DNA of 51,929 nucleotides, counting the filler, from Bipalium vagum (lineage: Eukaryota), in NCBI GenBank assembly GCA_037834085.1. It is 3 parts of 3 records of this genome, joined end to end, with 100 filler letters (N's around TTAATTAATTAA, not from the genome) between each part and the next. Parts side by side here need not be neighbours in the genome. Positions count along the whole stretch, not along the records: positions 17,536 to 34,389 come from JBBMKC010089975.1; 2 more parts are not named here. One strand, written 5' to 3'. Every line of letters begins with the position of its first letter. Position 1 is the first letter of the stretch. Position numbers and translations under genes: made by a program. The notes beneath the pieces are model-generated. The model had not been told where the DNA came from and did no database searches. It was given only the letters and a program-made list of their open reading frames with translations. Positions 5,464-49,655 of the stretch are shown piece after piece.

Positions 5464-6420
5464 CTAAAAATTGCTTTTTTGTAACTTATTTTCATAAAAT
5501 TTTTGCCTGTATTTCCTTCCTTTTTGAATAAATGATTCCATATACAATTGGATTTTTAAAATAAATTTCATTTATCAATCTTTTGTATTATTGCTTTATA
5601 TCAATTTTCAAATTTCTTTTTAAATTTAAAAATTCTTACATGATCTCCAATATAAAATTTTTGTTTTATAGTTAAAGGATTAATATTTTTGATTTCAAGT
5701 TTTTCAATCTTTAACTTGACGATTTTTATATGTATCATTAGGAGAAATATCGATTGAACTATGAATTTTATTATTGTGAAAATTAATTAAGTTTGATAAA
5801 AGATGTAGCCATTTTCGATTTCCCTGTTCAGTAAATATTTTAAACATTAAATTGTTTAGAGTTTTATTAAATCTTTCAATAACTACATCTTTTCTTCATT
5901 GTCTGTTGAATAAATTTCACTCTCATTATCATCGCAAAATTCTTCAAATGTTTTATTGTGAAATTCTGTATTTTTATCAATCCAAAGTTTTTCTGGTTTT
6001 CTTTAGGAGTTGACAAATATTTTATCAAAAGCATCTGTTATAGAATTTCCTGTTTTATATTTTAAAGGAACAGCAAAAGCAAATCTTGTAAATAAATCGA
6101 TAACTGTTAGAATTATTTTATAATTTTTTTCTCTTGGAACAAAAGTTAAATCTGCAGACCAAATATCATCTTTGTTATTTACTTTTATTTCAGAAAATTT
6201 TTAGGTTTTCTGAATTATTTATGACTTTGATTTCCTAATTGTTTACTTTTAGGAGGAAAAATTTTTGAGTTTTCATAGAGTTTTCATTATCAATAGTTTT
6301 TGTTGTTCTTGGTAAACCTAGTTCTAAAGCAATCTTGCTCTTCATAATTAATTTTACTAGAGCTCTTTCAAGTTTTTCTTTTTGAGTTGGATTTGAAATA
6401 ATATTCATTTCATGAATCTT
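5464..6420 (-). mobile_element. Polinton/Maverick fragment 1: C-terminus of PLA2-like ORF plus degenerate retroviral-type integrase
   Basis: Minus strand gives NPTQKEKLERALVKLIMKSK, DDIWSADL, LTVIDLFTRFAFAVPLKYKTG, KPEKLWIDKNTEF, VIERFNKTL, FTEQGNRKWLHLL and FYENKLQKSNF*; colinear with and clearly homologous to 30420-31368. Confidence 0.9.
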
Positions 6421-17535: not shown

Positions 17536-17785
17536 CATAATTAAAATTCAAAAGGATCACAAAACACATAAACATAATTAGAATTCAGAAAGAAGAGTTA
17601 AAATTCAGGTTCTAAAGGATAAGGATCACAGCACTATCAATGTTTCAATCAGTCTTTGGCTGTCGATTGGGGTTTTCTGTTTTTGTAGTTGCTTTTGATC
17701 GTCTTGAATTGCTTCATCTTAGAGTTTCCCCAATAATAATATAATCTTATATAAATATGTATACATTCAATTTTTATATGAAATT

Positions 17786-18590
17786 ATGACTAAAATTCAT
17801 CTGGATAATGAGAAAAGGGCTATCATTAATTCATATAGGTCTGATGGGCTTTCTCTCAGGGAAATTTCAAAGAAAAATGAATATTCAAAAAACCATAATA
17901 GCCTATAAAATAAAGCGATACCTTGATTAAATTCAAACAAATCATTCATCGAGACCTCGTGTGATCACAAAAAAGAAGATAGATCAATTATACTGTTGTC
18001 TAAGGGAAACAGACGGCTAATGTCTCATGAAATTCCAGCGGCTTTCATAGCGTTAAATGAAAACTCCAATCTGCTGATCTTTTTGGTAGAATTGCCGTAC
18101 ATAAACCACTGTGAGATCCGGAAATACGAAGAAACAACTCCTATAGGATCAGAAACATAAGAATTGGACTACAGAAAACTTCAAAAAAGCTTTATGAACA
18201 GACAAGTTTGAATATTTGGCAGTAACAGACGGATCTATGTTAGATGTTCGAGACACAAGAAAATGATGTTGAACTGCATAGCTCGAACTGTTAAATTAAG
18301 AAGATTCAGTAATGATTTTGGGTGGATTTTCATTCCAAGGAATCTGGCCTCTGTACTGGGTCAAAGATATTTTTGAACATAAGCAATATAACAACATACT
18401 GGTTCACATGACAGTTCCTGCAGGAAAGCAACTTATCAGATATGGATTTTTTATGCAACAAATAATGATCCGAAACATAATGTTAAACTATGTCAGGGTT
18501 ATCAAAAGCAAAAACAGTTAGATGGAACTTTACAAATAATAGATTGGCTACCGCAGTCTGTGGATTTGAATCTGATCGAGTTGTTGGGAT
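17786..18590 (+). pseudogene. Tc1-like DD34E transposase remnant
   Basis: GLSLREISKK, RPRV, VMILGGFSFQGI, FFMQQ-NDPKH and DWLPQSVDLNLIELL motifs, heavily frameshifted. Confidence 0.85.
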
Positions 18591-18619
18591 TCATAAATAA
18601 AGAGGTCCCAGGACCCATC

Positions 18620-18790
18620 AAATCCCACAAAGAATCCGGTCTTTTTTTCAACGGTTTTTATTGACATTATTAATAGTTCCATCTTTTTCTAATTTATCCT
18701 TTATTCGACTGATTGTCAGTCTTGTTGGAGGATCCACCTGAAATTCTTTCTTGAACAGGGTCAATAATTGAAAACTTTACAATCACATAA
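18620..18790 (-). pseudogene. Tc1/mariner transposase N-terminal HTH fragment
   Basis: Minus strand FKKEFQVDPPTRLTISRIKDKLEKDGTINNV resembles the N-terminus of DD37D/DD41D-type transposases. Confidence 0.6.
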
Positions 18791-19037
18791 GTTTTTATAT
18801 TTTAATTTTTTAAAATTTTTAAAATCTTAGTTGTAGATTTGTAAAATATTAAATAAATTATATTATTTATTATAATAAATCGTTATTATAGTAAAATCGT
18901 TTATTTAAATTAAAACTAAATTTATTTAAATTAATATTTTAAATTTCATTTCTCTGAATTAAATATTTCATAATAATTATTATTAGATAAGTTATCTAGG
19001 CTTTCTTAATTAAAATTCATTAGCTTGCGTTTTTAAT

Positions 19038-21116
19038 ATGGAGGCCACAGATTCTGATATAAGCAGTGAAGGAAGTGAATTTATTGCCACAGATGAAATG
19101 CTAACATTGGCGTATGATGACGAAAGTACAATAAACGATGAAGAAGATATGGCTGAAGAAGACGTAGCTGATGAAGATGAGATCAATAAATTAAAACTTG
19201 TACCTTAAAAAATACTTTCAACATAATAAATATTTTTTATTAGGAAAGTGAAATGCCTATTGAAGAATTATTGCGATTATATGGTTCAGGCAGTAATGAT
19301 AATGAACCTGGACCCTCAAACATTTCTACAACTCGACAAGCTCTTATAGTATCAGATGACAAAGATGTATGAAAATTATATGCAGTTAACTATCATTTTA
19401 TCTGTTAGGAATCCAATGTTGCTTCGGACACTCAAGAGAAACTGGAACTCATTCATGAAAATGGTATTGTTAATGAGATCGTTAATAATGAAACAGAAAA
19501 GGAAGTGCCAAGAGGGTCAAATCGATTGTGGTGCAAAGCTTTAATTGGTTATTTATAACTGTTATGATTTAATTTGAAATTAATTTCATAAGAGAACAAT
19601 TCGAATTACAATTCCGAAGACGATGGTGATTACATACCCATAATTAATTCCAAATTGTTTTCAAACGCTGTAATAATATTTATCGTTTAAAAATAATTTC
19701 ATAGATCAATTATTATTACTGTAAATAAATTTCATTTTGATTTAGAAAATCCGGATCGGTGAAAACTATCAGGCACAGATTCCGACAATTTACAATAACA
19801 CATCATGTACCGCTGATTTGATTGGTTTTCAATTGAGGCGAAACGAAGTATTGTTGTGGAAATGTTTTGATGATACAGACCATTTCCAACAGTCTCTGAT
19901 ACAATATTTACAACGGTATGGTGAAATAAGTGGACAAACAGGACTGAAAAACGGAAATATCGATGATGCTACGGTAATAGTTGCATAATAATATCCTAAC
20001 TTAACTTATGATTATATTGATCATTGTAGAGCGTAAAATTTTGAGCATTTATCTTAAAACAAATTTATTATAATACACAATATTAACAAATATTAAATAA
20101 ACCAATTTAGTTTATGTTGTTATCATATATATATATCGATTACAAGTGACATGAATCACATTACAGTATTGATTATCGTTAATCAGCTTAAAATGGTTAA
20201 TATTATTGAAGCATGAGTGATTTCTTTATACCCAGCTTTAATTAACATTACTGAATTTGTGTATCACTGGTTATTTGTATTTCGTTAGGCATTGTATACT
20301 TTAATGGAACAAGATTATGATTTTGAGGCAGCAGTTACTTACCTGAAGAACAAACCCGTCAGTCCCTCTAGTAGATTTTATAATTATGGTCATCAAACAT
20401 CAATTTAATTAATAATCCAGACTTTCCAACAATTATGGAATCTTGGTCGGAACAAGAATGCATTGAATTCGAAAAGGGGTTCGAAATTCATAACAAAAAC
20501 TTCAGAGTAATTAAAGAGCAACGAGTAATTTTATTAATACTATAATTGCTTTAATGATTTCCATTAAAAATCAATTAGTTACACACAAGAAGTGTTTCTG
20601 AAATTGTCGAATTTTATTATTTCTGGAAAAAAAGTGCCAGATATGATGAATTCATTAAATGGTGTAAAAGAGACCGTAAGAAACCATTGAGTCAAATAAC
20701 GTATAAATCGATAATAGTACAACATTGATATTAAATATTATCATTTAGAGATTTTATTGATTGCTTAGCACCTGAAGTTAATGGGAAAAAAGAAAGTTAT
20801 TTATTGGGAAATTGGCCTGGAGTACGAGTCAACAATGATATACTTCAAGTACCAGGTTTGAAATTATTAATTTATTTTTTCTCTAAACTTTATTTAAGAA
20901 AATAACCAAACGGCCCAGTTTCTCAACAAGTTACTCATGTGTAATGGATCAGAACATGAACGCGTCAAAAACGGAAGTTGGAACATGACAACATGTAAAT
21001 TGACAACCCACCAAAAAGAGTCTGGTGATGCCAATTCAGATAATTCAACAAAAGAAATTAAAACAAGCCCCGAAACATCCAGTAACACGGACTCTACTAA
21101 TAACAATGACAAATGA
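19038..21116 (+). CDS. MIER1: Mesoderm induction early response (MIER1-like) ELM2-SANT corepressor, 10 exons
   Basis: Exons 19038-19199, 19244-19366, 19409-19547, 19593-19669, 19746-19973, 20289-20370, 20421-20524, 20579-20700, 20749-20855, 20899-21116 splice in frame at GT-AG. Acidic N-terminus with DDESTINDEE and ESEMPIEELLRLYG; ELM2 KIRIGENYQAQIP; SANT WSEQECIEFEKG..RSVSEIVEFYYFWKKSARYD. Confidence 0.92.
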
Positions 21117-21310
21117 TGATTTTTTAAACCAAATATTATAATGTGGCATCAAAAATTGCTTGGCAGCTTTAAATTAAAAACAGAGAAAGAGATGTTTTTC
21201 TTTGCGTACCTCAATTCTCTGTACTATATATATTATATATATCATATATACTGTTCGATAACCAAAAGTATTTATTTTTATAAATTATTACAAAACTGTC
21301 TTTTTGTTTG

Positions 21311-23832
21311 TTACTTGGCTCTTAGGCGAACTTCGGATCCGTCGGAGAGTTTCACATCTTTACCATGATTGAGATAAAACAAATATTTGAGATATGCAGA
21401 TAGAAATGATGAGACCAAGTGTGACTAAAGAAATATGAAAAGATTGAATTTTTAATTTAAAAAGTAAAACTGTTTTTGCACACATTATCTAATTACTTAC
21501 TTGGCCACCACAATAGACCAGGGTTATCGCAAAATAAAAATTTGCATTTGCAGTTCCGTTAACCAACCATAAATAGTGCATCAATGGACCGAGGATTATA
21601 ACACAAAATATCATGATTGATGTTACAATACCAAATCTCAAATCTAAAATTTTTTGTCAATAAAATAACAAATCAAAACTATACATCGAAATAAATGCTG
21701 GTAAAAAGGTGCTAATGCAATTAATTGTCCGATTTCGCCGATCGATGGATAGGGTTTTAAGACATTTATTGTCCACTGGAGCATATAGGTTAGAAAGACT
21801 AAGTCATCCCTAAAAAATTAAATTTAATTATACTACAACAGAGGAGGAATAGTCTGAAATGTTCTTTTGTTTAAAATCAATCACTGATATAATATATTCA
21901 CTTCTATATTATATGATATAAAGTTAATTAGTAATTTAAATAAACTAATTAAATTAAATCAATAAATTTGAATAAAAACTCCCTTTCGTTTCATACGCTA
22001 CAACGTATAATTTTATCACTCATTTTCTATAAATGCTACTGATGTATTGTATTCTAAACCTCTTTATTTCATAAATGAAGAGTTTCAGTGATGAAATCAA
22101 ATTTGTTGCGAATCGCAGTGTGATAATTTAATTTTTTTTATAAACTCCCATTGCTTTGCCATATAATTTTTATTTGACATTCATTTTATTTTCCCACAGA
22201 ATCCAGTTTTCATCAATAAAACTCATAATCGATAAAGATTAATTACAAGTTTCATGTTTTTTTGATAGCGAGAAGAAATTAAACTAATAATTTTTTTTCC
22301 AAAGAACTTGCTTTGTAATTATGAATATTTAATTAAAAATCGATTTTAATGTGTTCTTGGCTCTCTTTTCCAAAAACTGGTAACATAACAAAGGAAAAGG
22401 TTGGCTCACTTATATTTTGCACTCAATCCGAAACAAAGGCTGGCTAAAATGATTTGGAATGTGCACTTGAAGAATGAACGGAAATGGTCAAACATTGTAG
22501 CCATCATGTACCAATAGAGATTCATTTGCGGATTTGAATCGTTCAAATAAAAACTAAACGTGACAGAAATGAGAAATAACAGGGTCAATGAGAGAAAAAC
22601 ACAACTCACTGGTGCCAGTAGACATTTGGGACGAATCGATAACCAACCATACAATACGAGATAGTGAGCAAAAAAAGTAAATTCGAGAAAAATATTCCTA
22701 GTACTGCGAGACATGATCCATTCTGAATCAATAATAATCTATTATTTCTCTATATATAGATTCAATTTAAAATTTCAACTTCTAATTGAAATCGATCTAT
22801 ATTTGTAATAAACTTTGAATAAATACATTATTACAAATAATATACCTTTTTTGCTCCTATTAGAAGTACGAGCAAAAAGAAAAACGGATACAAACTGGAA
22901 TAGGCCATAAATGAACATATCCAGGCAGCGAAGTAGTAGTTTTCTGAAAAATAAAAATATCGAAATAGCCAGTTCGATAGGGAAACAAAAAAATTTTTTT
23001 TAAATTATTGAACTATAATGAAGATGTGATTAATTTTTCAATTTAAAAAATTATAGAAAATTTTTTCAGTTATTGATGATTTATTGACAACTTTAAAACA
23101 ATCGTTTTATATCAGACTTTACCTTTAACAATGTTAAAAAACAGGATGAGAAAAAGCAAGTTGTTTAAACAGGTAATTGATTGAGACAATATTGAAATAT
23201 TCAATAACGGATTGAAAACGTGCCTAATAAACGTGTTACTTTCAAAGATAATTGAAAAATTCAAAATCAAACCACAGACAAAGCATAAGTCTTAGTTTTC
23301 TTAAGCTTTTCATCTCAATCAATAGACTTTTATCTTTAGTGTTGAATTTTTCTTGATTTTTCACAAAAATGGATATAATTTCGGTTGACAATTTTAGAGT
23401 AGCATATATACAGAATGTATCAATTATCTAAGAAAATAATTAACCTATAGTTTTCAGTAAAATATACTCACACAAAAAGAAAGAAATTCATATTTTTTGA
23501 ATAACCTCATAACCATTTTCCAAAAGGATAAAACCAGAGGAGGCTGATAATATAAAATAAAATTTAAAATCAGTTAAATATACTTGATGAATTCCATCTC
23601 CATCATATACAGGGAGATCTGAGTTTTGTAAAGCGATTGATTCAAGAACTTCAATGAGAAAATGTTACATTTTTAAAAGTTACTCACACTGCTTACTTGT
23701 TTCCCATGATTCTGTTGAAGAATAAGAAAGGCTTATAAAAGAATTATTCTTCACATATTTTCGTAAAAACAATTTGACAAGAAAATTAATACTAAGAAAT
23801 AAAGCTTCAGATATATTTAAAATATTCTTCAT
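21311..23832 (-). CDS. PIGU: GPI transamidase subunit PIG-U, multi-exon
   Basis: Spliced minus-strand exons give PVYDGDGIHQPPL, FNPLLNISILSQSITCLNN, AYSSLYP, DSNPQMNLYWYMMATMFDHFRSFF, LKPYPSIGE, LWLVNGTANANFYFAITL and DGSEVRLRAK*, matching PIG-U motifs in order. Confidence 0.92.
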
Positions 23833-24884
23833 TAAAATTTAATTAATTATTGAAATTGATATGATAAAACAAGTCACAGAAAACAAAATTAATAATTAAT
23901 AAATTTATAAAAAAAATTAATTTTTAAAATTACATATGGTTTAGAAATCTGATTTAATATCTAGTATATTGTGTGAAAAGGTTTGGTTTTAATTTGTTAA
24001 GAGTTAAAATAGTTTAAATTTTTAGTTTGAATATATTCTATCTACTGTTAACTTCAAAATAAATGTTTATCTAAATTATAAAAATCCTTATTAAGGTTGT
24101 CAGATATATATAAATGAATAATTACTAAATCAATTTATATTATTTCGTTGCGTTATTGGTATTTCTCTTGCTCCCTTTTGTTTGAATAATCTTTTCATTT
24201 AGATTCCTCTTCATCTCCATTTTACAATATACGAACGAATGCAACACTGGGTTGCCTGTCAATAAGATAAGTTTTACTGGTACTTTTGGCAAGTTTTTAT
24301 TAATTATCTTGTACTGTACTTGTCCAGGTGCAGTTGGTATTATTTTCTTTTTTAGTCAACCGTGATTCCCTGGCCTAATTGTTTATAAATGCACCCGTCA
24401 TTTTTCACAACACACTCTTTTCAGTTTCGACAGTTTCTTACTATGACAATGTATAATAACAAATTTAGCCAGAAATGGAATCCGAACCGTAATCAAGTGC
24501 CATTTAAGCCCAATCGTTCTATGCAGTGTGAACTGACATTATTATCGGTAAAATTCACTTCACCAACATGAATATTGTGTAAATACCAATTGTTCCTGCA
24601 ATAAAATTCCCAAACTCGTAAACTTTCTTCAGATTCTCTTCATTAGCTTACTAACTACTTTCTAATAATAATCTAAACTCAGTTAAACTTCATAGCTTTG
24701 TTCACCCGGTGCTTCCACATTACTTCGCAAAACTATTCCTCTTTACTCTAAGAACATATTTCTTCCAATATCTTCGATGTCTTTTGTGGTATCGATTCAA
24801 CCTGATTCTTATTCACAAAACTCTTTAAATTTCAAACCAATTTCTATTCTAAATTTTCTACTTTTCTTGTTTCGAATCCTTGGG

Positions 24885-25160
24885 ATGTATTGGTGATGGA
24901 CAATTGCAGGTTCCATCAACGCAAAGATGTTATTAAGTTGCTGACAGAACGAGGTATTTCTTACAGATTTCTGCCACCATACTCGCATCAGCTACAATAC
25001 TGTATCATTCTTTATAAGAACCATTTAGATCAGGACGATTGATTATTCAAGTACTCATACATAACGATATAGATTTACGTGATTATTTTCGTGACATGAG
25101 GCGGTTTTTAGAAAAACCTTGGTGAGACAATAATTTATTTAGTGTACATTTCCATTATAT
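24885..25160 (+). pseudogene. IS630/Tc1-family transposase C-terminal fragment
   Basis: VLVMDNCRFHQRKDV...YRFLPPYSHQL, the DNxxxH..LPPYSP motif. Confidence 0.8.
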
Positions 25161-25329
25161 ATTTCTGGAAATTTTTCTATATACTTCTGAATATTTTTTT
25201 ATATATTTTGAATAATTTTCTATATGTTTTGAATATTTTTATATATATTTCTGCATAAACCTGTAAGAATTTTAATGATTTTAAAGATTCAATATTGTAT
25301 GATTTATTTTTGAGGATTATCATTAGCTT

Positions 25330-25995
25330 TTGCAGAAAATTATTATGACTCTTAATCCTCCCTTCTTTTATACAGTGACAGAGAACGTGAGCTTGCGTTT
25401 CAGGTGCATTACAGCCTCTTCTACAGTTTACATTTTCCTTACGTAACACTTTATATGGTGCATAATTTAATTTAATTATATTGTTTCGAGCTTTTACAGC
25501 AAATATCCAATCATGAACCGGGAGACATCCTTGTATAATGATCTTATTGGACCATGGATGGAGCGATAATGCATCACTTAATTGCCCTTGGGATTTGAAT
25601 TTAGACCACGACCTGAAATATTCAATTCCTATAAGTTCATGCAAGTAATTACATATTTTGTTTTTTGAACGAAAGTCAAAATAAGCTTTCCTAGGTTCTA
25701 TGGCTGGTGACTTTATCTGCATTTCAATACCCTGTTCGCCCAGCTTGAAAATTACATCAATATCAAATTTTCGTTTCATATCTGTTACGCTTTTTCGGAC
25801 TTTGGACCACAATGTTGCTGCATGTACATCCTTATACTGTTTTCCATTGATCCACTCTAGTGCTACGTGGATATCAGTCTGTTTTCCTTTGTTACGTGCT
25901 TCTGTTGTGCTTATTAGTTCAGCAATTACTAAGTGTCGTAAGCTTCCATCAGAACTTGTCATCATACGAAACGTATGTACTATGTTTTGGACCAT
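25330..25995 (-). mobile_element. Second REL-type non-LTR retrotransposon fragment (post-RT region and CCHC knuckle)
   Basis: Within ORF 25177-25995: WSKFKSQGQL, FAVKARNN, CRRGCNAPETQAHVLCHC..RIKSHN; homologous to but diverged from 7128-8024. Confidence 0.88.
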
Positions 25996-26960
25996 ATATT
26001 CATCAAATTAATAATAAAACTTTAAATATATTTAATGAGAAATAAATTCTTACACAATTTGATAAAAATAATCATAAAGTTGAAGGTGGTTTATTAGATT
26101 TTTATTTAGATCAAGGGATGATATTGAAATTAGTGCATAAGGAATTAATATTAAAAAAATCTTACTGGCAAACCATTTATTCAATTTAATATAGAAAAAA
26201 AATCAGCTAAAAGAGATCGAGTTATCTTTGGGGATTTCTTTTTCAAATTATTAAATAATGCATATTATGGAAAAAAAATAAAATTTTAGGAAGGGAAAAA
26301 TATAGAAATCGTTAGGGATTATAAAAAATTTAAATTATATGCTTCTAAATTAACATTTGAAAGATCAAAAATATTTTCAAAAAATAGAGTTGCATGTCTC
26401 ATGAAAAACTAAAAAAAATGATAAATTTAATAATGTACGATTTTTTGTTTTAGAATATTCTAAATTAATAATGTATGATTTTGTATATAATTGTTTAGAA
26501 AAAGAATTATGTGAAAAATATAAAATTCATTTTGATGATACTAATTCTTTATTTAGTGAATTTATTTTAGATAAAATTAAAACAATAAAAGATATAGAAA
26601 ATAAACTATCAAACTATTTAGGAAATGAATTATTTCAATTTAAAGATGAGAAAACAAATGAGACATTTAAAGAAGCCTATTTTATAAAATCTAAATCTTA
26701 TGCTTATGAAGAAATAATAATAATAAAACTAAAGAAATATTTTTTGATCAAAATATGAAAGGAATAAATTAAAGAGTTAAAACAGACTTAAATGATTATG
26801 AAAATGCATTAAGCGGAAAAATAATTAAGAAAACAAATCATGGAAGGCATCTGATAAACATAATATTTATTTATATCAACAAGATAAAATTACATTAAGT
26901 CCCTTTGATGATAAACTTTTGATTGATAATAATGGAATAAATAGTTTTTCACATGGTTAT
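25996..26960 (+). pseudogene. Polinton protein-primed DNA polymerase B (pPolB), C-terminal part
   Basis: KPFIQFN, FFFKLLNNAYYGK (KxxxNxxYG motif), MYDFVY..FDDTNSLF (degenerate YxDTDS), FIKSKSYAY, LSPFDDK, HGY. Confidence 0.88.
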
Positions 26961-27295
26961 ACAATTAAATGTAATAATTGGGTTTTTAAATTAGAAGTTA
27001 TTTCTGGATCTCATGAATGTATATATATTTTTTCCATAAATTATTTTGTAATAAATTTGATTTATATAAAAATGAGTCAAATATCTACTTTAAAATATTT
27101 CGAATTAAATAATATTTTATATTTAAAGGATTTATATTTTGATTTATTAAATCTTCAAATATTAAGTTTACAAGATTTTTATGATTATTTTGAAATCGAA
27201 TATTTTATATTTTCATGGGAAGAATAATATTAGTTTATTTATAAAAAATATTTATTAAAAATTTTTTAAATATTTATTTATTAAAAAACAAATAT

Positions 27296-27966
27296 TTACA
27301 AATATTTATTAAAACAATTTTTAGAGATTTGTCTAACTTTAGTTTCAATATTAAACATTTTTCCTTCTTTAATTTTTATTTCCATAAATTGTTCCATTAA
27401 TAAAACTACATTTATTTCTCCTTTAAAATCTGTAAAAAATAAAATATGTAAAGTGACAACTGCTCCATTTAAACATAAATTTTCTGGTTGATCTTTTAAA
27501 TCAACACAACATATGGAATATAAATTTTGAAATTCTAATAAACTTAGTTGAGGGTTATTATTAAAATATCTAACATAATTATTATCTAACAAATTATTTT
27601 TTCCTTTTTCAAATTGAATTGGATTTAAGGGATAATAAGAATTATTTACTTCTATTCTTAAAGATTTAATTTTATCTTGAATAAAAAAATTATGTTTATT
27701 AAATTTAAATTCTGATTCTCTAAGAGCTGTAAAAATGTAAATTAGTTTATTCGGTACTATATATAATTGTAATGTTTGAGTTATACCTTCAGTTAAAGTT
27801 ATTTCTTCACAATGTCTAGATAAAAAAGTTATATTTATAGATTTTCCATCATCTATTCTTGTCAAAAGATTTAATTCTGATGTATGATTTAATTGTAATT
27901 CTGGAATAAATAATTTTAAATCAAGTAATTTTATTTTAGAGTCTTCTTTTGTTGCATAAATATTTC
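27296..27966 (-). pseudogene. Polinton major capsid protein (double jelly-roll), C-terminal half
   Basis: KIKLLDLKLFIPELQL..INITFLSR..IKSLRIEVNNSYYP..LSLLEFQNLYSICCVDLKDQPE matches the Polinton MCP layout; continues 29346-29800 once the Merlin insert is removed. Confidence 0.78.
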
Positions 27967-29345
27967 GGATGAATTTCGGTAAATGTACCACCAAGGTACC
28001 ACTTTTGTTTAAATATTGTATTTTCATAACTTTTGTTAATTGAATAAAATTTATTTACTTATATATTTATGTGAATGATAACGATCCTCTTTAGAGCTAT
28101 GTATATTTATTGATTGTTAAAAGAAAGAGTTATTATTCTTTGAATATCTATTAAGTATTAACCAAAGAATTAAATAAAAATTATTAAAAAATATATAAAA
28201 AAATTTTTACATAAAAAAATTTTACTGATCAAGGAGTTTTAATGTTCCTAGGTTTAAAATATAAGCATTAAATTATTTAATTTTTTTAGTCTTTAATTTT
28301 ATAAATATAATTAATATAAAGTTAGTGCCTCTAGAAAGCTTTCCCATATATTTATGAATGCTTCTCCAAATACATTCGAACAAATGTTCTTGTATGTGTT
28401 CGGAATCACGATTCATTGGTTTAATTTGTATTTTTAAACCATTCCAAATGCCTTCAATATTATTGGTGTGGACACCAGTAATTGGATTTTTATATGAAAC
28501 CAAGTGATTGACAGTTTCATGTTCATATCCCTTTTGAGCTAATCCAGTACACCCTTTCCACATATCGGTGTGTATGAATGTTCCATGTTTGACATGTTTC
28601 GTAATTATATTTATTAATGTATCTGAAGAACGATCAGGTATTTTTATAAGAAATTTCTTTCTTTCTTCTGTAAGTTCTATACCACCGAGAACCCATGCTC
28701 CTTCAACACGATGACCTAGGTGATATTTTCTTTTTCCCCATTTTGATTTCATCGATTTTGTCGATGATGCCTTCTCCTCCGATAATTGTATCTTCATATT
28801 CTAATATATTTGAGACCACATCACGAAAGTTTGCTGGAATGGGGTAACAGTTTCAGAACTGCACTTAGAAATCGAAATGATTGAAGTTGTTGGCAATTTA
28901 TTTAGCCAAAAAAAGCCAATAATAAAAATTTTGAAAATTGTATTTTCTGATCTTTGAATATTGTTTCACTTTTTATTGAAATTGTTTTACGGCATTTTTT
29001 ATTTCCGCATCTAAACCACTTGTTATTCATCTCCATATTCATAGGCTTGTTACATTTTTGGTATGCTTTATCCAGAGGTAATAATTGAATTATAAGAAAT
29101 TCTTTTGACATTTCTTTATTAAATAGTATTTCATAAAATTCTGAAACTGAGGGTAGCATCTAAAGGATAGCCATAATATTAAATTTTATTTATTAAATTT
29201 TTTAGTATAATTTTCTTACATTAAATAAGTAAAATTAGTTTTAAATATAATTTTTTTAATAATCCAATTTATATACTAAGAAAGCTGCTTTATTTGATGA
29301 ATTGAAACAAACGTCAAAAGATGGTACATCTACCGAAATAGATCC
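27967..29345 (-). mobile_element. Merlin (IS1595/IS1016-like) DNA transposon, both ends present, transposase frameshifted
   Basis: TIRs GGATGAATTTCGGTAAATGTACCA and TGGTACATCTACCGAAATAGATCC; 8-bp TSD AATATTTC (27959-27966 and 29346-29353). Zn ribbon in ORF 28902-29159; KRKYHLGHRVEGAWVLGG, IHTDMWKG, HETVNH and GVHTNNIEGIW in ORF 28273-28797. Confidence 0.95.
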
Positions 29346-29800
29346 AATATTTCTTTATCAATTCTTCTTGTAAATGTTAATTCTCCTTGTATGTCATGAA
29401 TTATTAAATTATAAAATTTTAAAAATCCAAATATTAATTTTAATGGAAATTCATCTTTAAATTTTTATTAAAATATAAATATTTTCTAGTTTTAAATCCT
29501 TTATTATCTTTAGTTTCATCATTTTTTATTTTATCTAATATCCAGCTAAATTACAAAATTCGTTAAAGAATTTGATGGACCTAAATTTTCAATTGTTTCT
29601 ATTTCAGGTGAACCTAATTTTAAAGTAGTATTAGAAAATAAATATGGAAAGAAGTGATTTTGTAAGGTTATATTTTCATCATCTTTCATATCTTGAATTT
29701 GAATTTTACATTTTAATTTTATTCACATTTTTCAGCTGTTAAGTCTTTTTTTATCTAGATTTAATTTGAAAGTATTTAATAGAAAACATTGAGACAATAA
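29346..29800 (-). pseudogene. Polinton major capsid protein, N-terminal half
   Basis: Minus strand ITLQNHFFPYLFSNTTLKLGSPEIETIENLG, GFKTRK and FPLKLIFGFLKFYNLIIHDIQGELTFTRR. Confidence 0.78.
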
Positions 29801-30160
29801 TTGGAATGTTATTTATATTTCTTAAAAATATTATGAACTAGATAAAAATTCAATAAGAAATAACATAAACGTTTTTATATTTTTTTAGAATTAAGTATTA
29901 GACATAAAAATTAATTTACATTGATTTACTTAGAAACATTATGGAAAACAACTGATTTCGATCAATTTGTTAATAATTATTGGAATGTAAAATATAATTA
30001 TATTTATTTAAATCGAGAAAATAAAGAAATAAAAACAGATATTTTTAATGAAGAAAACAACGAAGAGTAAGGTAGACTAGAAAAAGTTGAAAGAAACTTG
30101 CAGTCTCAAATAACAAATGATAAATGTTTAGAAAATTTTACAAATCCATGAGAATTACAT

Positions 30161-30559
30161 TTGAAATCTTTAAGTCCTTTAAATAAAACAAATCCGGTAC
30201 ATTCATTTTTAGGATCTGGCTCGTATATTGATAAAAGATTAGAAAACTATAATGACATTATAGAACATTACAATGAAACTAGAAAATTAGATATTCTTCA
30301 AATTCCAAAACAAGGCTCATTACCAATAAACAGAATTGATGCAGCTTCCATGAAACATGATGTAAAATATATTTCAAAAGATAGACATGCTGATTATGAT
30401 GAAATGATACATGAAATGAAAAATATTCAAAATCCCACTTTAAGAGAAAAACTTGAAAGAATGATAAAAAAATTAATTATGAAGGGTGCCTATAGTTTAG
30501 GTCTTCAAGAAGCTGCTAAAAATATTGCAAATGAAAAACTAATTAAAGGCAAAGAATAA
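30161..30559 (+). CDS. Parvovirus-VP1-like phospholipase A2 domain protein of a Polinton/adintovirus
   Basis: HSFLGSGSYIDKRL (YLGPG-like Ca-binding loop) and PINRIDAASMKHDVKY (DxAxxxHDxxY, catalytic HD). Confidence 0.8.
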   Translation: MKSLSPLNKTNPVHSFLGSGSYIDKRLENYNDIIEHYNETRKLDILQIPKQGSLPINRIDAASMKHDVKYISKDRHADYDEMIHEMKNIQNPTLREKLERMIKKLIMKGAYSLGLQEAAKNIANEKLIKGKE

Positions 30560-30560
30560 T

Positions 30561-31368
30561 AATGAAAAAAAATTAGCAAATGAACTTCATAAAGAATTTA
30601 GAAAACCTAAACAATTTTTAAAAGTCAAAGTATTTAATAAAGATGATATTCGGTCAGCAGATTTAAATTTTGCCCCAGGAGAAAAAGATTATAAAATAAT
30701 TCTAAAAGTAATTGATTTTTGCACAAGATATGTTTTGCTGTACATTTAAAAAATAAAACAGGACAATCTATAAAAAAATGCATGTGATACAATATTTGGA
30801 GACTACCAAAGAAAACCAGAAAAACTTTTGGTTGATAACGGTACTAAATTTTACAATAAAAATTTGAGGAATATTGCGATGATCACGAAATGGAAATTTA
30901 TTCAACAGAGAATGAAAAGAGAGTTGTAGTCATTGAAAGATTTAATAAAACTTTTAAAAAATTAATGTTCAAAATATTTACAGAACAAGGAAATCGAAAA
31001 TGGTTACATCTTTTACCAAATTTAATTAATTTTTATAATAATTGACCACATTCATCAATTGGTAGTTCTCCTAATGAAGCATTTAAAAATCCTGAGAAAT
31101 TAAAAGTAAAAAATAATAAAAATGAAAATACTAATTCCTTAACTTTAAAATCTAAATTTCATATTGGAGATCGTGTAAGAATTTTTATATATAAAAATAA
31201 ATTCGAAAAGAGATATACAGCAAAATGGGCAAATGAAATTTTTATTATTAATGAAATATTATTATACAAATCCATTTGTTTATGGAGTAATTGATTTTAA
31301 AGGACAAAAAATATTAGGTAAGTTTTATGAAAATGAGTTGCAATCATCTAAATTTTTTATAAAATGAA
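30561..31368 (+). pseudogene. Polinton retroviral-type integrase, fragment 2
   Basis: LANELHKEFRKPK, DDIRSADL, KPEKLLVDNGTKFYNK, VVVIERFNKT, HSSIGSSP, KFHIGDRVRI, YTAKWANEIF and GKFYENELQ. Confidence 0.92.
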
Positions 31369-31563
31369 TAAAATGATATATTTATTTTTAAAATTTATTT
31401 TAAGGATATGGTTTGAATTTAACAAATATTTTGCGTTTTATAGCTTTTGATGTGGGTTTATTAAATATTTAAAATTCATTTGATATTATTATCTTTCAAA
31501 ACATTAATAAATTTCAAAATATAATTTAAAAAATTAAATTAAAATTAAAATTATAAAGACTAA

Positions 31564-31667
31564 AATTAAAACAAAAACTGTATACAATTTTACTGATTCA
31601 GTTTTTCAATTTTTTTTTAACTCAAAAAATGAAACCCCAAAATGGTATACCGTTTTTGTTTTAATTT
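31564..31667. repeat. 29-bp inverted repeat
   Basis: AAATTAAAACAAAAACTGTATACAATTTT pairs with AAAATGGTATACCGTTTTTGTTTTAATTT (2 mismatches) across a spacer of about 45 bp. Confidence 0.7.
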
Positions 31668-32357
31668 CAAAGACAAGCATGCGTAAAACTATTAACATAA
31701 AAAAATTTATAATTTCGATATATTATTTTAAATATATTTCTGTATGTGATCTAGATAAAGATTAAATGCTCTTTCTGTTGGTATGATTTTCATTTTGACC
31801 CGATCATTATTTCTTATCAAATAATCGATTTTTTGATTTTTTTCGAAAGTATCTCAGAAAGTAAATTAATGACACATATTTGTTATTTTATGATAATTAT
31901 TAATATATAATTCTTTATCTTACTGCACAAAAAATTTTATACCCAGATTCAGGTTTTAATAAGATATTGACTTTTACATGTATTTTTACCATTTTTGACA
32001 CTTAATAACTTTTTTCCTCTAAGAGATATTAAGTTGAAATTTTATCTCTGTGTAGATTTTAAGATGCTCTATCTGGTAGAAGTAAAATAAATGTCATAAA
32101 TATTTTAGTTTTGAATACATGAAGAATATTCGAATTTTACATGTAGTTTAATTAAAACGAAACTAAAATACTTATTAGAATTTGGTTGAAGAAATATTAA
32201 ACTAATTATAAAGGTCTAATAGAATAATCATATTCGATTTCAAAAAGTTTAAAATATTCGGTTTTATAATTATTCGAAGTTTTAAATATTTGAACCTTAA
32301 TATTTCCTAAAAGAAGATATATAGAAAAAATCTAATGAAACTTTTAATTTGTTGGCA

Positions 32358-32705
32358 CTACTTCAGCCTTTTATATTTCTGAATATCTGTTATTAGAGGG
32401 CATATTTTCTTATAGACCAGTCTAAATTGTTCAGCTAAAACAAATCTTTGCATGCTACTACTGTGGATTTGAGTCGCATTTGAAATATCGGAGATGATAC
32501 TAGACCAGTTTCTAAAAATTGTTGCTGACACCGCTGCTCGTCGGTCTTCATAATTCTTAATATAATGTCTTCCAGAAATTTGCTTCCTAGCCAACGTACC
32601 ACTTTCAAAAAATAGATCCCTCAATTTTCTGGCATAGTTTTTGTTGAAATTGAAAGATCGACATGAATCTTTGACCCTAGTATATTCGGGTTCCACTTTT
32701 TCCAT
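32358..32705 (-). pseudogene. Tc1/mariner-like transposase N-terminal (HTH) fragment
   Basis: LFFESGTLARKQISGR..ISDISNATQIHSSSMQR..KKICPLITDIQKYKRLK; no catalytic domain follows. Confidence 0.65.
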
Positions 32706-32775
32706 TTTGATCAACAACTTTTCATAATTCAGTAATAATAAAAAAGATTTGATATTTCTAAATTCAAAAGCGGCC

Positions 32776-32826
32776 AGAGTACTCATGCGTATGTGAAAGG
32801 TCCTGGGTTCGAATCCCGGTATCTCT
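32776..32826 (+). pseudogene. Partial tRNA (Ala-like 3' half) pseudogene or SINE head
   Basis: ATGTGAAAGGTCCTGGGTTCGAATCCCGGTATCTC contains a T-arm/B-box (GGTTCGAATCC) and resembles tRNA-Ala 3' halves; 5' acceptor strand and D arm are missing. Confidence 0.6.
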
Positions 32827-33657
32827 GATTAATTTTCAACTAACAAATATAATATATTTATATTTTTAAAAACTATTACTAAGAATTTTTATCATTACAT
32901 GATAAAAATAATTTTTAAATGAGTAAAATAATGACTTTATTACATTATAAAATAAAAATTTATGATAAAATGATTTTGTGACTTTATTTTCATAAAATAT
33001 CCGGAAAATATGAGAATTTAAAAAATAATTAAAAAAAAGAAAAATTATTTATTCAATTTTAATAAACAAATACTATTAACCAGTCCTTTTCAATAAATAT
33101 CATCAGAAAAGAAAACAACGAAAAGTCAAGGGAAAATATTTTTATTATTGCAAATATTGTCAATAGTAAAGAAAAAATAGGTAAAATAAATGACATGCAG
33201 TGTCATTAAATATTCCTAAAAATCATTTATTGATTTTTCCTGAAAATATTGATTAAAAATTAAAAAATCAATTGACATGAGAAAAGCTCACAAATAAAGT
33301 TAGATACGTTCTCTCTCGAAACGCTGGACGATTTAACGGTCTGAAAATGCAAAGTTAATAAAATATTAATTTGATTGAAAGAAACAATATTGATAAATTC
33401 TCAAAGTTAAATAATTCACTTTAAATTTTTAAAATTTTAAATAATAAACTGAAGAGTCTAAGGATGATATGGTAAAGAAGTATGAAAAGCATTTTATTAT
33501 CTTCAGAAAGGTGGTAGAGTTGTTTGAACAACAAAAATTTATCAAAGAAACCAGAGTTTTTATTAATATCTCCAGATTGTCAGAGAAAAGAGAAAATCAC
33601 ATTCTTCAACTTTTTAAGTATTAAAAAATATATTAAAGCATGATTTGCTTAAAATTT

Positions 33658-34219
33658 TCATAATTTCAAAGGACGCACTGATGTAGAAACCATTAGAGTT
33701 GTAGCTTTTGCAGTTGAACCAGGCGCCAAGCTTCCAGCTCGGACAGTGGAAACCGAACTGCGGTTTTTCGTTCTCAGTTTCTGTAAAGCTTGTTCAGCCT
33801 GGTCGGCTCTTTCTTCGGAATCCTCTATTTCCTGCTGAATCTTTCGATATTTGGCCAAATTAACTGCAGCGATTTCTTCGGCTTCTTCCACTTGTCTCTT
33901 GTAGATCTTGATTTTGGACTGAAGTTTTTCAACCAGGTCTTGCAATCTTTCCTGATTCTTTTTGTCTTCCTCAGTCTGAAAGAGAAAATCGTTGATTACA
34001 AGATCTGTGAAAGTGTCCTTTTAGTACTTGTAGTCCAATTTCCTTGATTCGTCTTTCCATTTTTCGTGTACTTTTCTGAGTCTCTGTATGTCGTCGTTGT
34101 TCCGCATCCAGTTCTGACTCCAATTCACGAACTCGTTGTTCCAGTTTACTGACGACTTTTTTTCCATCTCTTATTGCATTGTTTTCAGACTCATCCAATC
34201 TCGCTTGATAATCTTTCAG
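33658..34219 (-). CDS. Mhc: Muscle myosin II heavy chain, last rod exons (5' part cut off by the linker)
   Basis: Exons 34219-34028 and 33975-33658 with a 52-bp intron: [68 protein letters not shown]. Confidence 0.95.
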
Positions 34220-34334
34220 CTGAATTTTAAAGAATAGTATCAGATCATACAAACAATATTATAAAAAATTACAAATCCATAATTTATTATTTTTTTATTA
34301 GCAAATGAATCATTATTAGGTTTAATTTGTATTA

Positions 34335-34335
<1 letters not shown>

Positions 34336-34389
<54 letters not shown>

Positions 34390-47500: not shown

Positions 47501-48473
47501 AGATTTTCTTTGGTATTATGTTTTTGTGGTTGTGAGTTTATATAATACGCATCTCTTTTAACAAATCATTATCCTGCTTAAAAAGGACAATCGAAAACCT
47601 GGTGAGAGTGGCATTTTTAAAAAATTATGAGAAGACTGTGAATTAACTAAATAGGTACACCAGAAAACTTAACGTTTTCTTTATACAGTTTACTCATTTA
47701 ATATTTTTTTGGTTTCTTATTTTTTGGATCGAAGCACTCTCAGAGAACTTAAATCACATATTAGTACATAATATAAATGACAGGTTAAATGAAAATTGTA
47801 ATTTACTTTGTGCAGCGAGATATTCAGGGTAACTGAAGGTAAGATATCACAGGAAAATGGCACAAACAGCACCTGATATTCCCACACAAAAATTACAAAA
47901 GCAGATATATTGGATTTTACTGTTAATATTGACAACGAAAAACTGTCTTTTGCGGTTAGAATTGAGGTATGCAACTCTATTCCTATTCTCTTCAACGAAA
48001 TGGTGTACAGATTGTTAGTCGAACAGATTTTTGTAAATTTGTCAATTAATAAAGGACCAAATTTCCGGGTTTGTCAGTGTTTCCATTTGACTTAAGATGA
48101 CGATATATATTGTCACTGCGTCCAAGCATGTTAACGTCTGACAATTAATAACGATAATTAAATAATCAATATGAATGATTAAAACATGATGAATTGATTT
48201 CATTGATTTTATTAGATGCTTATATTTTTCGTATTTATATACTTTAATGAAAAACGACAAATAAATAAAAAATTATATGGCTTAATTATGTGATTTCAGT
48301 TGACCCAGCGAAGAGCTTGGCTACCACGCCAATCCCAATTTTGACATTTAGTTCATAAAAAATACTTTCTTTGTAAAACGGAAAGAACAATTACTATTCC
48401 GTATCTTTTTTATTATGTAATAAAATTTAAATGGTATTTAAAAACTATTTTAAAATAAATAATTACAAATAAC

Positions 48474-49655
48474 ATGTCTTTACATTTGCTAAAGAAAGAA
48501 TTCAGAAAAGCTAATCAATTCCTTTCAGAAACCTTAGGGTCTACTAAGCCCACAGATCTCGGTAAAGATTTTATTCTTGTTGAAGACCAATTCAATGCCT
48601 ATCATCACCTTTACAAATCCATGTCAAAAAACTGCAAATACATAATGCATCCTGACAGTTCAAATATGATATTCTTGAACACTGCCAAAAAGTTTAAAGG
48701 TGAGAAGGATCAGCTGGATTATTGTCACCCAGAAAAACTGATTTCAGAAAGCTGTTTGAAATACGGCAAGACATTAGAGGAATATCCCTTAGGTTCTGTT
48801 TTGACAGACATTGGGAAGTGTTATCATGAAATGTTGGATCATCAGGTCGAGAAGGATGTGATGCTGAAGAAAGACTTCATTGATGCATTGAGAAAGGTTC
48901 GGTTAAATGAAATAAAAGCCATCTTAAAAAAACGGAAGAAGATGGAAAGCTACAGGTTGGTGTATGATGGTTACAAACGGCAGTGCCTCTCAAATCCGAA
49001 ACTGTCCGACGCTAATATGATGAAAGCAAAGAAGAAGTTTTCGGATATGAAGAGTACCGTTTACCAAAATATGTTGAGCTTTTTATTCTCTGAAGAGTCT
49101 ATATTACATGCCTTCTCAAGGTTTGCAGAGATACAAATAAGTTTCCACAAAAGATGTTATGAGATCAATAAAACGATGTCTGCAAATATCAAGCAAAAGA
49201 AAGAGGAATCGTCAGAAAATCAACAGAATACTGACACTGATCTTTCCAATTCTGAACGCAATGATCCAAATTCAGATACTGATTGGCCTCATTCTGAATA
49301 TAATGAATTCAATTCGGAGAGTGGTCGATCTCGTTCTGAATATAATGAATCCAATTCGGATAGTGATCATCCCCGTTCAGAATATGATGAGTCCACGTCC
49401 TCCAGTTCTAGCTCATATAACAACAGTAGAAGTTCCACAGAATGCTTATCAGAACAAGATGAGAGATCAAAAATACCAGTCGGTGCCAAGTGCTGTAAAG
49501 TACTGTATGACTATTATGGAAGTGATGAAGAAGACCTGAAAGTACCAGCTGGTAGTATTATTGAATTTTTATCAGAACAAAACGAAGACTGGTATGTTGG
49601 CAAGTATAATGAGGCAATTGGATTGATACCACAAAAGTTTGTGAAATTTTGTTAA
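48474..49655 (+). CDS. Endophilin-A-like N-BAR + SH3 protein, intronless (393 aa)
   Basis: MSLHLLKKEFRKANQFLSETLG matches the endophilin H0 helix; KKRKKMESYRLVYD is a BAR motif; C-terminal SH3 CKVLYDY..EEDL..DWYVG..GLIPQKFV. Confidence 0.9.
   Translation: MSLHLLKKEFRKANQFLSETLGSTKPTDLGKDFILVEDQFNAYHHLYKSMSKNCKYIMHPDSSNMIFLNTAKKFKGEKDQLDYCHPEKLISESCLKYGKTLEEYPLGSVLTDIGKCYHEMLDHQVEKDVMLKKDFIDALRKVRLNEIKAILKKRKKMESYRLVYDGYKRQCLSNPKLSDANMMKAKKKFSDMKSTVYQNMLSFLFSEESILHAFSRFAEIQISFHKRCYEINKTMSANIKQKKEESSENQQNTDTDLSNSERNDPNSDTDWPHSEYNEFNSESGRSRSEYNESNSDSDHPRSEYDESTSSSSSSYNNSRSSTECLSEQDERSKIPVGAKCCKVLYDYYGSDEEDLKVPAGSIIEFLSEQNEDWYVGKYNEAIGLIPQKFVKFC

Follow-up and report, generated by a model that had tools for sequence, protein, structure and literature searches.

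The window analysed here, 51,929 nucleotides with filler joined from three parts of the Bipalium vagum genome (assembly GCA_037834085.1), contains in its second part (positions 17536-34389, the entire 16,854-bp contig JBBMKC010089975.1) a decayed endogenous copy of a capsid-encoding and likely self-integrating DNA virus, an adintovirus-like Polinton/Maverick; this identification is supported by its genes and by its relatives in the same genome. Our reading, to which we give a probability of roughly 85%, is that the element is a dead member, with internal deletions, of a multi-copy family that likely spread in several waves through the host genome and whose ends are predicted to fold into hairpins. 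By itself, the copy in the window is a commonplace fossil of a kind already known. The family is a modest departure from that kind, in its predicted fold-back ends, its three gene orders and its two polymerases.

A sequence-only reading of the window had proposed a pPolB gene on the plus strand, a major capsid protein (MCP) gene in two parts on the minus strand, and a PLA2 domain and a retroviral-type integrase on the plus strand. All of them were found near the proposed positions by tblastn, Pfam scans and comparison with relatives in the genome (Table 1). A 252-aa frame (27299-28054, minus strand) matches the DJR-like_dom family PF21738 with an E-value of 6.3e-10 in a Pfam scan, and the best database relative of the window MCP, the 413-aa protein P0001, maps to 27961-27329 and 29677-29351. 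The fold was predicted for this 50%-identical homologue and not for the broken gene of the window: the alignment-based model is a double jelly roll (predicted local distance difference test, pLDDT, 85), for which Foldseek returns the capsid proteins of iridovirus, PBCV-1, Sputnik and mavirus (E 1e-14 to 2e-11). The proposal of a fossil capsid-encoding Polinton/Maverick thus holds for the family and fold of the capsid protein, as it does for the gene linkage, termini and one 6-bp target-site duplication (TSD) seen elsewhere in the genome. The 5' part of the gene matches many genomic copies at 67-87% by blastn, and 152 MCP matches were obtained in the assembly (441 Mb in 272,664 contigs; 150 of 2,956 first-look candidates scored). 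In the databases, a search for homologues of near the same length retained 1 of 178 candidates, a full HMMER scan gave 41, and no longer homologue was present among 959 candidates.

The capsid gene is in two halves because a Merlin element inserted into it, precisely at the split points read from the sequence. The insert is 1,379 bp long, with 24-bp terminal inverted repeats (TIRs) that match at 21 of 24 positions, an identical 8-bp target duplication on both sides and a DDE_Tnp_IS1595 match (PF12762, E 3.6e-16), and further genomic copies of it begin at the same end. Merlin/IS1595 elements have an IS1595-type DDE transposase, short TIRs starting with GG and an 8-bp TSD; the window insert, a passenger, is alike in all these traits, with no notable difference.

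The PLA2 and integrase domains are both present, not as two genes but as one frameshifted gene. Relative L032 has a single 496-aa open frame that spans PF08398 (PLA2, E 4.5e-6) and PF00665 (rve, E 5e-11), and a separate PLA2 gene is rejected on that ground. Both domains of the window copy score below the Pfam cut-off (PLA2 E 0.026, rve E 0.096), so that their identity rests on this open-frame relative. A genome search with the PLA2 part gave 150 matches (150 of 2,378 first-look candidates scored). Novelty of the fusion is likewise rejected, since the two domains occur together in 93 of the best 120 of 1,487 homologues, one of them from a coral. Fusions in animals and metagenomes, such as P0120 from Oculina patagonica, have the same domain order as the copies described here; some of these homologues end in a C-terminal chromodomain, which the copies here do not have.

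The same reading had seen no packaging ATPase, protease or penton gene. Protease-like and penton-like genes are indeed absent from the window, but a remnant of the ATPase is there. By tblastn it matches the ATPase regions of L117 (E 2e-21) and L124 (E 4e-20), which in turn match Pox_A32-positive type-A ATPases, and its DNA is 81-90% identical to other type-B loci. The two types are about 30-60% identical to each other, in pieces. The Pox_A32 genome search gave 26 matches among 150 candidates scored out of 318. A third ATPase type (L021, L023 and L027), whose frames are open and whose Pox_A32 scores are the highest, is unlinked to this MCP family on short contigs and possibly belongs to another Polinton-like family.

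Only the 3' third of pPolB is left. Positions 26037-26915 match, in several frames, residues 635-940 of the L047 polymerase, a 941-aa open frame elsewhere in the same genome (best combined tblastn E 1.6e-17). By blastn the remnant is 81.6% identical to L084 over 1,085 bp, and the matches of L073 and L076 begin at 26002; comparison with the PF03175-type polymerase L046 gave nothing meaningful (best E 0.56). L046 has a strong PF03175 match (E 1.6e-32) and L047 has none in the protein scan and a weak one in the genome search, and the two polymerases barely align (E 0.004). L047 also carries a weak HNH-like Endonuclease_7 match (E 0.024), and its polymerase matches those of IMG/VR contigs L226 and L227. 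We infer from the comparisons with L046 and L047 that the window polymerase belongs to the Beta-like, non-PF03175 class. The PF03175 genome search gave 75 matches among 91 scored of 676 candidates. Contig L226 is a distant Polinton with the ATPase upstream of the integrase, a convergent Beta-like polymerase and what we take, from its motif, to be a stand-alone PLA2-like gene, which makes it a useful unfused comparison.

The same genes are linked in other copies of the genome, as the sequence-only reading had expected. Conserved extra genes were found by clustering open frames around the genome matches, and neighbours were tallied over 168 loci picked by anchor gene, a few contigs possibly being counted twice. 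The main order begins with the small gene u6 and goes on with PLA2-integrase, pX-like and protease-like genes, a fibre-like gene, two genes of unknown kind and one of membrane type, and then penton-like, ATPase and MCP; an optional HNH-like or HTH-like gene comes next, and pPolB closes the order from the other strand. Motifs are the basis on which we assume the names pX-like, fibre-like, HNH-like and HTH-like. The most frequent adjacencies are ATPase to MCP (39), penton to ATPase (27), u6 to integrase (26), integrase to pX (14) and pX to protease (10). MCP is directly convergent with a Beta-like pPolB 7 times and with a PF03175-type pPolB 4 times, and 5 further Beta-like genes adjoin the HNH gene after MCP. 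Linked runs of 8-9 genes are present in L071 and in L078; the overall order was pieced together from overlapping contigs. Pooled across copies, the family has pPolB, rve integrase, double-jelly-roll MCP, A32/FtsK ATPase, TIRs and a 6-bp TSD, as Polintons do. Polinton TIRs measure 100-1,500 bp and the TSDs 5-8 bp (typically 6 bp), and one element of 13-25 kb holds all the core genes.

Three gene orders exist in the family. In the second the type-B ATPase lies directly before the integrase (7 adjacencies). MCP and type-B ATPase are divergent in 4 of the 16 distinct loci that have this ATPase, namely the window, L128, L146 and L214, and L146 and L214 align at 77.6% along 643 bp that run from MCP into a common spacer. 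Since its layout recurs at three other type-B loci, the window is most likely a deleted member of this minority layout. The divergent MCP/integrase arrangement that had been proposed is a minority order of the family. The compact layout is rejected as an intact genome: the family spans about 14-15 kb (an estimate from gene spans), and the window copy is a deleted remnant. The copy would have started in the minority layout, with polymerase and capsid at one side and ATPase and integrase reading away from them; its ends, the 5' ATPase part, whatever lay downstream of the integrase and the larger portion of pPolB would then have disappeared, and a Merlin element would have inserted.

Two pPolB classes accompany one capsid family and the same termini in this one genome. 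Among 53 MCP copies, the polymerase is Beta-like and convergent in 14, Beta-like and tandem in 6, and of PF03175 type in 7, with none within 3 kb in 26. The 3' halves of these 53 copies are 71-83% identical to that of the window, and in their tree, which has several starred subfamilies, the median end branch is 0.052; the window's branch is 0.11, so it is an older copy. Layouts follow the clades of this tree: they need 8 changes, where shuffles average 11.5 and reach so low a number in 3 of 200 cases. One starred clade (n=7) includes both polymerase classes (3 and 2), and the starred branches require at least 2 changes of the PF03175-type label, a count that deletion-made neighbours could inflate. 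The copies with tandem pPolB and MCP (L014, L075, L082, L089 and L090) sit in two starred clades, and that inversion therefore likely predates the amplification.

The termini were located in other copies, which stop matching upstream of u6 at one sharp point and start with AC-AC-A. A 15-base terminal pattern has 344 exact matches in the genome against 1 for the reversed control. TIRs and one 6-bp TSD, features that the sequence-only reading had suggested looking for in intact copies, are present in L106, a 4.4-kb deleted element with no capsid genes: its two TIRs align over about 140 bp, and the 6 bp that flank it are the same at either end. A 2.3-kb unit (L192:498-2831) has a fold-back end on each side and only two accessory genes, with flanks matching at 4 of 6 bases. 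We rejected the idea that the paired terminal motifs are free miniature inverted-repeat transposable elements, as the short pairs listed match at no more than 4 of 6 flanking bases and their inner flank is conserved. The termini of L071, L095, L109, L112, L180, L186 and L188 adjoin genes of another copy of the family, which suggests nested or clustered insertion.

Many of these ends carry an inverted copy of their first 12-60 bases some 90-300 nt further inside, mostly at about 110-120 or 215-290 nt; a TATA-like flank, itself conserved, comes after the inner copy, upstream of the first gene. We applied a strict test for the inner copy to 60 additional loci anchored on the motif, taken from the first 100 matches listed; 58 were long enough and 28 of them passed, compared with 6 of 1,160 shuffles. 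DNA folding gave z-scores of -3.1 to -5.7 in six of seven ends and -1.5 in the other. In 19 ends of the short class, 86.4% of the cells are paired, against 79.3% in shuffled and 24-53% in slid controls, and covariation is 0.177 versus 0.073 (0 of 500 shuffles); both sides change in 7 of 22 pairs, which is not above shuffles (82 of 500). The arms were compared in 24 short and 24 long units, after dropping three loci whose partner had no inner flank and two of intermediate length. Among the variable positions listed, the letters of the two arms are in agreement at positions 9 (24/24) and 11 (22/22) of the short class and at positions 16 (21/22), 21 (23/23) and 23 (21/21) of the long class. From these patterns the ends of the family are predicted to fold back into a hairpin.

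In the accepted scheme, whose replication part is largely drawn from sequence, excision and insertion are the work of the Polinton integrase, the linear DNA is copied by pPolB through protein-primed strand displacement, and ATPase, protease, penton and MCP build an icosahedral double-jelly-roll particle. With ends of the kind predicted here, the 3' end of a displaced single strand could pair with the inner copy, its last base annealed beside a template running into the element. The folded end might then act as a local double-stranded origin or as a self-primer, and might also serve as the template that keeps the two arms matched. That the displaced strand folds back as an origin or self-primer is a tentative proposal, which we hold to be somewhat less probable than its negation. 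Its fuller version is rather unlikely: an animal Polinton with hairpin-ended TIRs would rebuild a local origin, or self-prime as parvoviruses do, beside pPolB, and the fold-back would let two pPolB classes share ends and promote the inversions behind the three orders.

The inner copy could instead be a second binding site for a protein (terminal protein/pPolB, integrase or a transcription factor) acting in duplex DNA, the arms being matched by the shared protein or by conversion with no hairpin, and we consider this to have only slightly less than an even chance. The conserved TATA-like flank after the inner copy, upstream of the first gene, is consistent with such a site, as are the mostly unpaired positions 13 (13/19) and 15 (11/19) of the short-class stem, and the co-variation could descend from few ancestors. 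A single site, however, is exceeded by the complementarity of the long class, which reaches about 50-60 nt, and the co-varying positions differ between the two loop classes; L071, moreover, has an identical private letter in both arms. A further alternative concerns particles rather than ends. The family may be a transposon only in this host, having inherited a capsid module that no longer made particles and spreading inside cells by being excised, copied and inserted again. Of the 150 MCP matches listed, most are partial or contain stops, deleted two-TIR elements such as L106 do without capsid genes, and no free or expressed form was seen in the data, which are an assembly and one contig set. 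The virion genes have nevertheless kept their linkage and their order in several starred MCP clades whose end branches are short, which suggests their retention through successive waves and makes the transposon-only alternative doubtful, at well under even odds.

That the window layout is a chance join of two unrelated broken elements, or a mis-assembly, is improbable. The assembly is indeed highly fragmented, and the exact junction of the window is spanned by no other copy among 40 scored; the divergent MCP/type-B ATPase order nonetheless recurs at three loci, two of which align into the spacer, and an assembler chimera seems unlikely because the sampled MCP copies are so diverged from the window's. 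Among the listed contigs of one sequencing run, none is long enough to span the junctions of 27900-31200, which speaks neither way. Against the favoured reading, a deleted copy of a multi-copy, capsid-encoding family, a number of observations must be set. The window copy has no terminus, L106 is the only element with a clean TSD, and no complete full-length copy was seen, the gene order having been assembled from short overlapping contigs. As to the hairpin, 30 of the 58 termini failed the strict test, some as near misses (about nine by eye) and others truncated or decayed. The arms agree less well at positions 16 (16/23) and 17 (14/19) of the short class, and only one independent co-change pair falls on supported branches of the loop trees, so that repeated independent co-change of the arms is not demonstrated. 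Two virion labels are also tentative. The penton-like gene is conserved, and its label rests on position, one gene from MCP, and on an Atlas look-alike cluster (Adeno_Penton_B in 18% of members, score 0.96), and the single-sequence model has a pLDDT of 36; passages of PMC4028283 give one gene from MCP as the usual place of the penton in Polintons. The protease-like gene is conserved, with His-Trp, Phe-Asp and Cys-Gly motifs that are presumably an adenain-like cysteine protease signature; PF00770 is matched in 1 of 6 members (E 0.043), its genome-wide search gave nothing, as did the control of that search, and the gene found no match in the PDB.

Table 1. Features of the fossil and of its immediate flank, in window positions.
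Feature	Position	Strand	Evidence
Probable C-terminal part of a non-LTR retrotransposon, flanking, outside the virus	25177..26007	-	276-aa frame clusters with two unrelated loci; abuts the truncated pPolB
pPolB 3' third, Beta-like (pPolB2-like, inferred class), frameshifts and stops, 5' two-thirds absent	26002..26980	+	tblastn, blastn
Major capsid protein gene, 3' part	27296..27966	-	PF21738; 50% to P0001 residues 194-411
Merlin/IS1595-like DNA transposon, transposase broken	27967..29345	-	PF12762, TIRs, TSD
Major capsid protein gene, 5' part, frameshifted, internal deletion	29346..29800	-	tblastn to P0001 residues 75-117, 160-192
Type-B A32/FtsK-like packaging ATPase, 3' remnant, divergent from MCP	29793..30034	+	tblastn
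Broken PLA2-like + retroviral-type (rve) integrase fusion gene	30083..31355	+	52% identity to L032 residues 10-434

Around the fossil, the flanking frame assigned to a retrotransposon had no significant match in the Pfam scan and contains what we take to be a CCHC-type motif. A DDE_3 transposase fragment lies beside the fossil at 24806-25042 (plus strand, E 4.8e-8), and a DDE transposase fragment, presumably Tc1/IS630-like, lies on its other side at 32358-32828 (minus strand). A myosin II tail exon at 33661-34020 has invertebrate striated-muscle myosins as its best PDB matches. The host is an animal, likely a flatworm and, given a GC content of 26-31%, probably a planarian. The first part of the window, from another genomic place, holds the same Polinton integrase once more, again broken (5467-6417, minus strand), and at 48459-49652 (plus strand) there is a single 398-aa frame with BAR and SH3 domains, endophilin-like and intron-free over that span.

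Searches for close relatives outside the genome gave little. Viral contigs searched with the L032 integrase or P0001 returned none, an integrase alignment search returned six distant viral loci, of which three were scanned for inverted repeats with no element end recognised, and a metagenome scan returned a single weak 36-aa match. In the literature we found no description of such ends in animal Polintons, the founding Polinton paper, two reviews and Repbase lying outside that search. Repbase has planarian Polinton entries. For flatworms, the literature searched gave one preprint, which reports Orthopolintovirales insertions in Rhabditophora (10.1101/2025.04.19.649669).

Compared with adintoviruses and animal Polintons as described in sections of PMC8502044, the family shares pPolB, rve integrase, FtsK-type ATPase, double-jelly-roll capsid, penton-like and adenain-like genes, inverted terminal repeats (ITRs) and the PLA2-like domain, which by analogy with parvoviruses is thought there to aid membrane passage. 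Those sections treat PLA2X as a gene of its own that has pX as its C-terminal domain and typifies Alpha virion modules, whereas here PLA2 is fused to the integrase and followed by the gene we assume to be pX-like. The polymerase of the window is of the non-PF03175 class. Parts of that study (Starrett et al. 2021, PMC8502044) also describe how polymerase and virion modules are swapped between Alpha and Beta types; flatworms are not mentioned in its main text and one supplement. Nematode Polintons, in the portion of Jeong et al. 2023 (PMC10748475) consulted, likewise have two barely alignable classes, pPolB1 and pPolB2, with the same capsid genes and termini and an HNH-like domain on the second. 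The family described here differs from them in host phylum, in having several gene orders and in that no fusogen was identified. It adds to the nematodes another animal example in which one capsid family goes with two polymerase classes. The word "hairpin" is absent from that paper, and a passage of PMC4061559 states that bidnavirus ITRs do not form hairpins. The nearest parallel for the ends is in the virophages and the polinton-like viruses (PLVs) of Halocafeteria seosinensis, for which parts of a preprint (bioRxiv 10.64898/2026.07.28.741278) describe palindromic TIR extremities proposed as priming hairpins. The palindromes there are tight (52 nt in one subtype, with a search gap limit of 10) and occur in a protist, mostly in elements without pPolB, whereas here a loop of about 50-250 nt lies between the arms and the element is an animal Polinton that encodes pPolB. 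Terminal palindromes would extend from protist virophages and PLVs to an animal element of this kind, and fold-back ends, if true, would be an unusual way to start or repair replication. The terminal structure, kept matched in many natural copies, offers a short substrate for tests of origin function that need no virus.

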